Shown: positions 6,001 to 9,000 of the stretch, one piece after another | How the letters are laid out: each line of letters begins with the position of its first letter | Position numbering within the stretch: position 1 is the first letter of the stretch | NCBI GenBank assembly: GCA_021294815.2 | Contig: CP095464.1 | Span: forward strand, 240,001 to 272,000 | DNA length: 32,000 bases | DNA from: Verrucomicrobiota bacterium | GTDB lineage: Bacteria; Verrucomicrobiota; Verrucomicrobiia; Opitutales; LL51 | Direction of reading: 5' to 3' | Position numbers: made by a program

Positions 6001-9000
6001 GCCTATCGTTATCACCGCACCAATCAGGACTGTCGTCAAAGTTTCCATTATTGGAATACCTCTAATGCTAAGGCGACAAAATAAGACTCAAGCTAATTTT
6101 TAACGGTTTTACAAAGTATAAGCAAAACTTATAAGTGACCTTAAAAAGTTGTTTTCTGAAAAGAGGCGCAGAAAAGCGTCGACAAAAGCACGAAAATGTG
6201 GAGGCTCTGAGGACGCATCCGCTCGGGTGGTGGAATTGGCAGACACGCCAGACTTAGGATCTGGTGCTGCAAAGCGTGAGGGTTCGAGTCCCTCCTCGAG
6301 CACCCTAGCTAAGCAGAACTCTTTTCTCAAATAATCTTGACATCCATTTTTATTAAATCCACACTCCCTTTGCTATGATTCGTTCAAGCTTTTTAAAACA
6401 CTTATTGACAATTCTTTCCATCGGAGCTACGTTTCCATCTTCTGGCGCTTTTGGTAGCTCGCCCGAGGAGGAAGAGTCTAGTAACGAGAAAAGTGTTGTC
6501 ATTAATCGAGTTAGTGAAGAAACTGTATTGGGTGATACTAAGATACACCGGTTTCGTATTTCTCAGGACCGTGCAGATCCTCGTCGAACGGTCATTTTCG
6601 TAGAAGATTATACAGGGCAGAAAGTGACTCTCGAGGGGGACGATCTCTCTTTTACAGAGGAACGCAAGGGGCCTGAAAATGTAAAATCCATCTCTATCGC
6701 AGGCAACTCTGAAGGTCTCGTAGAGGTTTCTCTTGTTGGTGATTCTGAAAATGAAATTTCGCGATTTTTCTATGTATCTGGTCGGCAAATCAGGATACAT
6801 GTTGGTCCCTCCGGAGGATTACAACGGGCTGTTCAGATTGAATCGGCAGTTTCAAAAATCTCAGAGAGTCACAAAAGTGAAACGGTCTGGACGGAAGTCA
6901 GCGACTCTCGAGTTGAGTTCGGTAATAATGAGGATGAGGTTCCTTCGCAGTATCGCCCCTATAAGCGTTATTGGTGGGTTCTGGCTCATAAATTCCAAAC
7001 GGTATCCATCAGTGGGAATGTTCGCATGGGTAACTTTGCAGTCCCAACCTATCCCACAATTGCAATCAGTGGTATTGATTTAACGCGGGAAGGGCGAGCG
7101 GGTGAGTTCTTTCCAGCCTTTGTTGTCGCAAAAATCGACGAAGAGAGTGGACTACCGAAAGTCGAAATCTTTAAAAGCAAGGACGCCTCTGAACCTATGC
7201 TAACGGTCGTAGACCACGCCCCTGTATCTCAACAAGAGAATCAGTAAACCGGCACTATGACTACCTCGGGAAGCCTTTTCTCGAGATCAAATGAGGGGCA
7301 GCCATCGACCTGCCTCTCATTATTTCACAATTCGGAAAGCCACTATCAGAGTATGGGCCTCATAGATTCGCAATGAGGCCTGTTCGGTTGTAAACACTTC
7401 ACCACCTTTGAGACCAATTGAACACGGCGATTACTGTAACCCCATTTGTTATCGTGTCAGCTGACCTTAGGATCTGGTGATGCAAAGCGTAAGGGTTCGA
7501 GTCCCTCCTCGAGCACCCTAACTCAATTAAAATATTTTTCAAAATAGTCTTGATCTATGCATTTTATTCATTCACCCTCTGCTCCGATATGATCAAGTGG
7601 GGATTTTTAAAGAAATTGCTTTCAATCTCTTGTGTCGGCGCTACCGTTTTTACCGCTAGCGGGAGTACCTCCCGTACGATAGCGCCTGTTTGCAGCAAGA
7701 ACTTTGTAATTCATCGGCTTAAAGAAAAAATAGTATCCGGCGAAAAAAAGGTTCATAAATTACATATCCGCAGGACAGGCGATATTCCGACTCGGACATA
7801 CATTTCCATAGAAGATTTCAATGGACAAAGGGTAACTCTCGAAGGAGAGGAGATCTCCTTTACCGAAATACGCAAAACGCCTGAAAACATAGTTGCCCTC
7901 CATATTGCACACAACACTAAAGGGCTGATTGAAGTTTCTTTGATCGGGGATTCAGCCAACGAGATTACGCGATTCCTCCACGCATCTGGTCAAAAAATCA
8001 CCATACACGTTGGCCCCTCCGGAGAATTTCAGAAATTCAATCGCGATAGCCATCACGGTAAGGGCAGAGTGCCTTACTCAAAAATCTCATATGGCGACAC
8101 CCAGATTGGTCATAGTGCGCAGGAAGTGAATGATAAATATCGCGCCCAAGGATGCTATTGGTGGGTATTGGGTCATAAATTCCAAGACGTGTCAATCCGC
8201 GGGTACATTAGCCCCCTGTATGTAAATGACCAGATCATGGCCTATCCTCTAATTGAAATTGCGGGAATGCAATTGAAGAAAGAAGGGGTAACAACTGGAT
8301 TTTTTATTCCTGAACTTATAGTCGCTACAATTGATGCGACAAGTGGTCTACCGCAAGTAGAGATTTTAGAACATAAAAAGGATAACGAGCCAAGATTGAC
8401 TGTAATCGACTGCGACCCCTTGTATCGAAAAGCTCTTTCAATAGATCCCAAACAGATTCAACCTTGAAATGTGCGTAATTAATAAAAACCTGCCGAGTTA
8501 TACGAGATCCGACAGGTTTGTGTTGTCGTTTTAAATTATAAAAACTTCGCTAGTTTCGAGATTAACTGCACACAGCGATTGCTGTAACCCCATTCATTGT
8601 CGTACCAGCTGACAAGCTTGAAGAAGCGATCATTGAGCTGAATTCCAGAGCCCGCATCAAAAATCGACGAAAGCCCACAGTGGATGAAATCGGAGGAAAC
8701 GACCTCATCAGAAGTGTATCCCAAAATTCCTTTTAGTTCACCCTCTGAGGCTTCTTTCATCTTAGCGCAAATTGCTTCGTAAGATGTGGGTTTTTGCGTT
8801 TTTACCGTTAGATCAACGACAGAAACCGTTGGTGTTGGAACGCGGAATGACATCCCTGTCAATTTCCCCTTCACTTCAGGCAATACGAGTCCAACGGCAA
8901 CTGCCGCGCCTGTCGTTGCAGGAATAATATTCGTCGCCGCACTACGGCCGCCTTTCCAGTCTTTGCGCGAAGGTCCATCGACTGTCTTTTGCGTGGCTGT

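Follow-up and report, generated by a model that had tools for sequence, protein, structure and literature searches.

A head-to-tail junction of gap and tRNA-Leu pieces at a strain-variable slot for an orphan gene family in a Verrucomicrobiota bacterium

Tandem segmental duplications place copies of a segment head to tail across a single junction made by RecA-independent illegitimate recombination, and they are usually young and unstable, with identical copies. tRNA-associated islands of the CIME (cis-mobilizable element) type are bounded by attL and attR repeats and can grow by the tandem accretion of integrase-less elements. Variable content at a fixed site is found in two further systems. 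In the minimal mobile elements of Neisseria (2007 study, as described in PMC3787668), variable cassettes lie between fixed flanking genes and are moved by recombination in those flanks. The pspC locus of Streptococcus pneumoniae encodes a surface protein and is highly polymorphic, its alleles falling into many groups (Iannelli et al. 2002, via PMC10383233), and in some strains two allelic variants stand in tandem with the insertion sequence IS1167 between them (PMC10383233). Here we describe a locus that resembles each of these in part, found in 32,000 nucleotides (nt) of Verrucomicrobiota bacterium (assembly GCA_021294815.2, contig CP095464.1, positions 240,001 to 272,000 of the forward strand); we call this whole stretch the window, and all coordinates are window positions unless a contig is named. 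Between an intact tRNA-Leu(TAG) and gap, the gene for glyceraldehyde-3-phosphate dehydrogenase, the window carries two related orphan genes, X1 and X2, separated by two dead gene pieces fused at a joint. Comparison with related contigs shows the tRNA-Leu(TAG)/gap interval to be a slot for a single orphan gene, X, with a content that varies from strain to strain, and we think it probable that a single old illegitimate tandem join at this cassette-like, hypervariable locus produced two slots that were later refilled by homologous recombination.

From left to right the interval reads tRNA-Leu, leader 1, X1, spacer 1, gap fragment, tRNA fragment, leader 2, X2, spacer 2 and, on the opposite strand, gap. 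These elements form two colinear head-to-tail units, each running from a tRNA piece through leader, X and spacer to a gap piece, with the repeat families D1, D2 and D3 spaced 1208, 1213 and 1148 nt apart. The left outer boundary is the intact tRNA-Leu(TAG), which ARAGORN places at 6221–6304 on the plus strand and Rfam (RF00005, 56 bits) at 6221–6302, so that an earlier note on this DNA had located it correctly to within 2–3 nt. The repeated part of the tRNA starts with the first base of its anticodon loop (6253) and recurs as a dead plus-strand piece from the anticodon loop to the 3′ end at 7466–7517, where 50 of 52 positions match 6253–6304 (best of 200 shuffles, 29/52) and neither ARAGORN nor Rfam calls a tRNA. 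The D2 repeat as a whole is longer, 6253–6340 recurring at 7466–7553 with 84% identity, and the similarity is weaker through the trailer and leader to about 7553. The right outer boundary is intact gap (8536–9561, minus strand), whose product matches Pfam Gp_dh_N (E 3e-36) and Gp_dh_C (E 6e-68) and whose last 78 nt are the source-type sequence for a second dead piece, the last 25 codons plus stop, at 7388–7465 on the minus strand. This piece aligns without gaps to 8536–8613 at 60/78 positions, about 17 standard deviations above the mean of shuffled sequences (mean 34.0, standard deviation 1.48, maximum 39), and its resemblance to gap, reported in the same note, is thus significant. Its 18 differences from gap include the two inactivating changes already noticed there, TGG to an in-frame TGA and TAA to CAA with loss of the stop codon, as well as the replacements E to K, C to R, I to V, L to V and F to C, all at residues invariant in six real gap alleles; the C-terminal 25 residues of the gap product are invariant across six strains. 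Judged by these changes, 7388–7465 is a non-functional gap fragment. Each tRNA piece is followed by one member of a paralogous pair of open reading frames on the plus strand, X1 at 6375–7247 (290 amino acids) and X2 at 7589–8467 (292 amino acids, the most likely start being the ATG at 7589). Both encode orphan proteins with a signal peptide, N-terminal in X1, and they share 43% amino acid identity (E 1e-78). The trailer and leader regions in front of them (6305–6374 and 7518–7588, both plus strand) also align, as had been claimed, at 52/75 positions (shuffle maximum 47).

A single novel joint, at 7465/7466, fuses the distal end of the unit, at gap codon −26, to its proximal end in the tRNA anticodon loop, and the intact tRNA and gap lie outside it. 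The joint reads ...CAGCTGAC/CTTAGGATCT..., the slash here and below marking the point of fusion. Because this order, with both intact genes outside, is what a single head-to-tail join yields, we take the structure to be one such join, and its geometry fits only a head-to-tail junction. The position and nature of the joint had been recognized correctly from the sequence; the short microhomology proposed along with it is a weaker claim, as gap reads ...CTGAC/AAGC, the tRNA ...CCAGA/CTTAGG and the joint ...CTGAC/CTTAGG, an overlap of at most 0–1 nt. The same joint is present in two related contigs, L001 and L002, which come from two samples. L001, in which it reads …ATCAGCTGAC/CTTAGGATCT…, is colinear with the window over spacer 1, gap fragment, tRNA fragment and leader 2, and the two gap fragments are 91% identical. 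This recurrence in a related metagenome contig shows that the junction is real and inherited. Like the join of a classical tandem duplication, the arrangement has head-to-tail units, one novel junction, intact outer genes, the possibility of collapse and perhaps also a lack of more than minimal microhomology; unlike such a join, it is old and shared by haplotypes about 8% diverged, its two genes are far from identical, and its contents differ between haplotypes that share the joint.

The relatives of the window (L001, L003 and others) are syntenic contigs gathered from several samples through the X proteins and the product of the window's infA. All contigs keep the flanking order mnmE-(ybaK)-SPFH-tRNA-Leu … gap-mnmG-tsaD, and the tRNA-Leu sequence of the window is 100% identical in L001 and L003. 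The X genes of the relatives stay at the tRNA-Leu/gap locus; paralogues at unlinked loci would have spoken against a tandem origin. A single X is present in L003 and L004 (type A, 95% identical to X1 in nucleotides and 93% in amino acids), in L005 (type B, 89% and 84% identical to X2), in L006 (type C) and in L009 (type D). Two X genes are present in the window (A + B), in L001 and L002 (A + C, with the same scar as the window) and in L017 (E + C′, with a decayed tRNA 3′ fragment between the genes); the slot 1 gene of L001 is 77% identical to X1 in amino acids. The types number at least five (A to E) and are deeply diverged, with 32–50% amino acid identity and a saturated synonymous divergence (dS about 1.7 to more than 2) between them, and they sit in strains that are 90–99% alike in the flanks and have a housekeeping dS of 0.05–0.7. 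The ratio of nonsynonymous to synonymous divergence (dN/dS) is 0.16–0.29 within types, and 0.16–0.27 for X1 against its orthologues, which indicates that the X genes are functional. Single-X relatives, which had been expected to reveal the ancestral state, do exist, but they carry different types of the gene and not one ancestral member. Like pspC as portrayed in PMC10383233, this is a polymorphic locus at which some strains hold two different variants in tandem; unlike in that description, the separator is a junction of gap and tRNA fragments and not an insertion sequence, and X lacks domain matches.

Behind the same joint, slot 2 is occupied by type B in the window and by type C in L001 (32% amino acid identity, saturated dS), so at least one of these occupants was replaced after the join. 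Aligned to its relatives, the window is a mosaic that is L003-like up to the X1 stop, L001-like in the scar and L005-like from 7466. Between 6022, or an earlier point, and the X1 stop, the window and L003 have 95.4% identity, whereas the flanking genes of the L003 strain (L013 and L003) are only 88.5–93% identical to those of the window. Exactly at this stop (window 7245–7250; L003 1225–1230) the identity to L003 drops sharply, from 95% to about 66%, which on the alignment marks the stop as a recombination breakpoint at the cassette border. The scar is most similar to L001, and 7466–13247 aligns continuously to L005 at 92%, with a dS between X2 and the L005 X of 0.28 (housekeeping baseline 0.29–0.39). 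The block formed by type A and its spacer adjoins real gap in L003 but the gap fragment in the window. The two-copy arrangement is incongruent with the strain tree, because L001 falls in a cluster of 95–99% identity with the single-copy L005 and L009, and the window lies outside that cluster at about 92%. The B-type leader and signal peptide are found at single-copy loci (L005, L009) as well as in both slots, slot 1 in L017 (type E) and slot 2 in the window; type C is the downstream gene in L001 and L017, yet in L015 it precedes a second tRNA-like copy. The locus therefore combines fixed flanks and variable cassettes with incongruence between cassettes and strain phylogeny and with breakpoints at cassette borders. 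It is like the Neisseria minimal mobile elements, as PMC3787668 describes them, in its fixed flanks, in cassettes that differ between close relatives and recur in distant ones, and in the absence of mobility genes. It differs from them in that all X cassettes are diverged members of one gene family, not unrelated genes, and some haplotypes stack two of them across a scar; transformation as the route of exchange would be carried over to these bacteria by analogy.

Taken strictly, the duplication proposed in the earlier note would have happened in place: one ancestral X would have been copied in tandem and its copies would have diverged by vertical descent into X1 and X2, and single-X relatives would be ancestral or reduced. 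Such a history agrees with X1 and X2 being clear homologues in the predicted head-to-tail geometry. The joint may also be very old, to judge by the ten changes on the stem of the gap fragment and its mixed allele states and by the strongly decayed scar of L017, and loss of either copy through the scar repeats would give the scar-free structures of L003 and L005. The wholly different slot 2 of the window and L001 behind one and the same joint nevertheless contradicts the model for at least one haplotype, and the divergence within the window is distributed in a way that it does not predict. Between the two units identity is 96% in the tRNA piece, 69% in trailer and leader, 61% in coding DNA and 77% in the gap piece, and the spacers cannot be aligned (tRNA piece against leader, Fisher p 4e-6); X1 and X2 differ at a dS of about 2, as against a K of 0.28 between gap fragment and gap and of 0.04 between tRNA fragment and tRNA. 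The uniform divergence across the units, dated by the joint, that would be expected of a single event is thus not what we observed. This unevenness counts against divergence from one event because unconstrained fragments should then decay fastest, and here the dead fragments are better kept than the coding genes, leaders and spacers. The model also meets a B-type 5′ region in slot 1 of L017 and a type B that is no closer to C than to A, and it would need at least four independent losses among close relatives. On balance we consider it unlikely; of the tandem-duplication interpretation, the joint and its geometry are retained, and the derivation of the paralogues from one X and the ancestral single-X state are given up.

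An insert set between an intact tRNA and a direct repeat (50/52) of that tRNA's 3′ part is also the classic geometry of attL and attR, and integrases commonly cross over in the anticodon loop, where the repeat begins. On these grounds the segment made up of X1, its spacer and the gap fragment might be a small island put into tRNA-Leu by a tyrosine integrase acting in trans, with the tRNA fragment as attR, and the locus does resemble CIME-type islands in this layout and in units that can be stacked serially. It departs from them in the absence of an integrase and of any other mobility gene, both from the stretch bounded by the repeats, where such genes would have refuted the duplication proposed in the earlier note, and from the syntenic 20 kb, in its native composition (GC content 44–45% against 45–50% in the flanks, with no compositional anomaly), and in a repeat that stands beside a fragment of a chromosomal gene: it adjoins the 3′ end of the neighbouring gap, which a tandem join explains in one step and an att site does not. 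The cargo would moreover belong to the same gene family as the resident gene, the joint in a second haplotype (L015) lies upstream of the tRNA and at about tRNA position 9 rather than in the anticodon loop, and the tRNA fragment decays freely in L001 and L017. We rejected an integrase-type island for these reasons, among them that only X1 lies between the repeats, that the GC content is native and that the abutting gap piece would be left unexplained, and we regard it as very improbable. Improbable to the point of being negligible is a two-copy arrangement created by an assembly that merged co-occurring strains with different single alleles. The relatives do come from metagenomes with coexisting strains, and contigs often break inside the tRNA, but merging cannot create a uniquely decayed gap fragment with 18 differences including a stop codon, and the joint was found in the window and, independently, in the contigs of two samples; the decayed scar sequence and this recurrence led us to reject an artefact.

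The scar fragments themselves bear on the age of the joint. The gap fragments of the window and L001 have ten changes in common that occur in none of the six real gap alleles, both inactivating ones among them, and only two further changes are private to the window and five to L001. Where real gap alleles differ, the fragments mix the states of two deep allele groups, which suggests that the copying of the gap piece roughly coincided with the deepest split in the strains sampled, or preceded it; dating by the gap fragment gives a K of about 0.19 per lineage, roughly three times as deep as the divergence of the window from L001. The tRNA fragment shows a different pattern, with 0/52 derived changes shared between window and L001 as against 10/78 in the gap fragment (Fisher p 0.006): the L001 fragment has six substitutions and an indel, none in common with the window, and private changes number two in the window and six in L001, in agreement with the two and five of the gap fragments. 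In L017, a decayed tRNA 3′ fragment precedes the second X (z 5.6 against shuffles), and its decay, far beyond that of the window's fragment, suggests a joint that is older still; a possible gap remnant beside it was not significant (54/500 shuffles). Contig L015 (SRR30592964, 1–1138) holds the tRNA 3′ end, an X of type C″ with its spacer, and then a copy, about 25% diverged, of some 100 nt from upstream of tRNA-Leu. Its second tRNA copy starts at about tRNA position 9 and has a broken acceptor stem, and its joint differs from that of the window. This second, independent joint indicates that stacking has happened at the locus more than once.

Under the reading that we favour, an old illegitimate join followed by refilling of the slots, the joint would have formed once, long ago, by illegitimate recombination essentially without microhomology between two copies of the locus. 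These copies could have been sister chromosomes, or resident and incoming homologous DNA, the latter possibly a circularised fragment that integrated through tRNA homology. The founding event may have duplicated one cassette, which was later replaced, or stacked two cassettes that already differed. The scar fragments would have been non-functional from then on and decaying, and the cassettes, each with its own leader and spacer, would since have been exchanged with other haplotypes by homologous recombination, with the conserved flanks and, for single slots, also the short tRNA or gap fragments serving as homology arms. Collapse to one copy could proceed by recombination between the tRNA and the tRNA fragment, which would remove slot 1, or between the gap fragment and gap, which would remove slot 2. 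Since either collapse would restore a scar-free single-copy locus, some single-copy haplotypes may be secondary. The simplest account of the tRNA fragment's pattern is import into slot 2: a cassette coming from a single-copy haplotype would need its left crossover in the tRNA fragment, the only homology there, and that crossover would restore the fragment to the sequence of the intact tRNA. Gene conversion by the tRNA, which lies 1.2 kb upstream, would have the same effect. The tRNA fragment appears to have been reset in some such way and is therefore unusable for dating the joint.

Several points weigh against this account. The joint could be as old as the split between the types, and the types could have begun as true duplicates, because the gap fragment mixes the states of both allele groups and the scar of L017 is far more decayed than that of the window. 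The type tree is star-like and unrooted, and would formally also be compatible with a division into slot 1 and slot 2 lineages. Setting scar divergence against dS fails to separate duplication followed by divergence from the stacking of two alleles, given a tRNA fragment that looks refreshed and the more decayed scar of L017. The good preservation of the tRNA fragment requires an extra assumption, either gene conversion or a crossover during slot 2 import, and the L017 joint, with its gap remnant within the range of shuffled sequences, is only possibly the same as the window's. The relatives are all metagenome contigs, some of them short, and transformability in this uncultured Opitutales lineage would be assumed by analogy.

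The non-coding elements of the interval follow the cassettes. The trailer and leader of X1 contain the motif AATAATCTTGACA, a possible −35 element, and no Shine-Dalgarno sequence is visible in 6305–6374. Those of X2, of type B, contain AATAGTCTTGATC and lie within the continuous 92% match to L005, and leaders of this type are also found before type D (L009) and before the slot 1 gene of L017, which is of type E. About 35–40 nt 5′ of every X start in the window, L001, L003, L005, L006, L009, L015 and L017 stands a conserved A/T-rich motif, AAATA(A/G)TCTTGA(C/T), also written AATAGTCTTGAC, which in the window occurs at 6329–6342 and 7541–7553. The motif might serve as a −35 element, in which case the 5′ untranslated region would be very short or absent; no Shine-Dalgarno sequence was seen in the X leaders that carry it, and a sigma-70 scan gave no match 5′ of X1 or X2, a result not above background. 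Spacer 1 (7248–7387), linked to type A, contains a perfect 8-bp hairpin (GGCCTCAT...ATGAGGCC, at about 7356–7380) that is probably the old bidirectional terminator between X and gap. It is homologous to the X/gap spacer of the single-copy L003 (z 8.5, 0/300 shuffles), to which it is only 66% identical, and it is 87.5% identical to spacer 1 of L001; its similarity to spacer 2 is no better than that of shuffled sequences. Spacer 2 (8468–8535), linked to type B, is colinear with the L005 spacer, and in a terminator scan it showed a terminator-like hairpin at 8510–8528 followed by a run of T. At the other end of the cassettes, the types diverge in the sequence directly after the tRNA-Leu discriminator base. 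The 3′ CCA of the tRNA is genome-encoded in L005 (12904–12910), L009 and L015 (…GCACCA) and is not encoded in the window (6300–6306), L001, L003, L006 and L017 (…GCACCC).

Other parts of the neighbourhood vary as well. A ybaK-like gene with a tRNA_edit domain lies between mnmE and the SPFH gene in the window (4551–5021), L001 and L010 and is absent at the same position in L005, L006, L009 and L011, a presence/absence polymorphism among close strains. An lptF/G-like permease gene at 1657–2820 is about 77% identical in nucleotides to all relatives (dN 0.137, dS about 1), which are 91–98% identical to one another, and it looks like a divergent allele imported into, or kept only in, the lineage of the window. 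A second island of low identity, at 13200–15600 (50–80% against L001, where the baseline is about 93%), holds a hypothetical protein, a BaxI-like membrane protein and a family-9 glycosyltransferase (GT9).

The X family is narrowly distributed in the databases searched. A word-seeded search of 5.8 billion proteins returned two proteins with X1 alone and four with a profile of the X alignment, and an exhaustive profile search of 1.84 billion cluster representatives returned only seven, of which one was a weak match to the signal-peptide region and the others came from this lineage. The relatives of X belong to one uncultured Opitutales/Verrucomicrobia lineage, with GCA_029059345.1 and CAMWJR01 as named metagenome-assembled genomes. 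Exact-protein look-ups for the X1, X2, gap and S16 proteins of the window found nothing, a GTDB genome scan recovered only the metagenome-assembled genome of L003 again, neither the X profile nor the exact joint sequence had a match in scans of JGI metagenomes, and a literature search for the sample and assembly accessions gave no match. X1 and X2 matched no Pfam, PHROG, NCBIfam or PDB profile, and an AlphaFold2 model from a six-sequence alignment was unusable (mean pLDDT 33.5). Types B, D and E (window 7589–7720; L009 12979–13875; L017 1204–1962) share the leader and the signal-peptide region, with 57–76% amino acid identity over the first 45 columns, and the remainder of their proteins is 26–54% alike, D being closest there to A; these alignments indicate intragenic mosaicism. 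Every X type starts with a hydrophobic, signal-peptide-like N-terminus. This predicted secretion, together with the extreme divergence between types, the purifying selection within them and the neighbouring divergent envelope genes (lptF/G-like and GT9), suggests that X is a surface or secreted protein, possibly under diversifying or balancing selection.

The locus is a further example of known processes, distinct in the scar that separates its cassettes, in its single orphan family and in the extreme divergence of its types. It illustrates that a structural scar can be read rightly while the gene history that it seems to imply is misread, and for annotation that repeats of a tRNA 3′ end need not imply integrase-mediated islands. 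Seen in its population context, what looked like an old duplication giving rise to paralogues becomes a polymorphic locus of ancient cassette types that have been replaced slot by slot and stacked more than once. A more speculative idea, which we hold only tentatively and think rather unlikely to be right, is that the scar fragments are portable homology arms, dividing the locus into two slots that can be exchanged independently of each other; the locus would then be a recombinase-free cassette array maintained by balancing or diversifying selection. If so, strains would need no dedicated recombinase to stack, exchange or lose ancient alternative forms of a secreted protein, and the second joint in L015 and the apparently refreshed tRNA fragment of the window would be footprints of that exchange. 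The X family, among the most variable regions of a neighbourhood that is otherwise 92–99% conserved, is thereby a candidate for a part in interactions with a host, with phages or with competitors.

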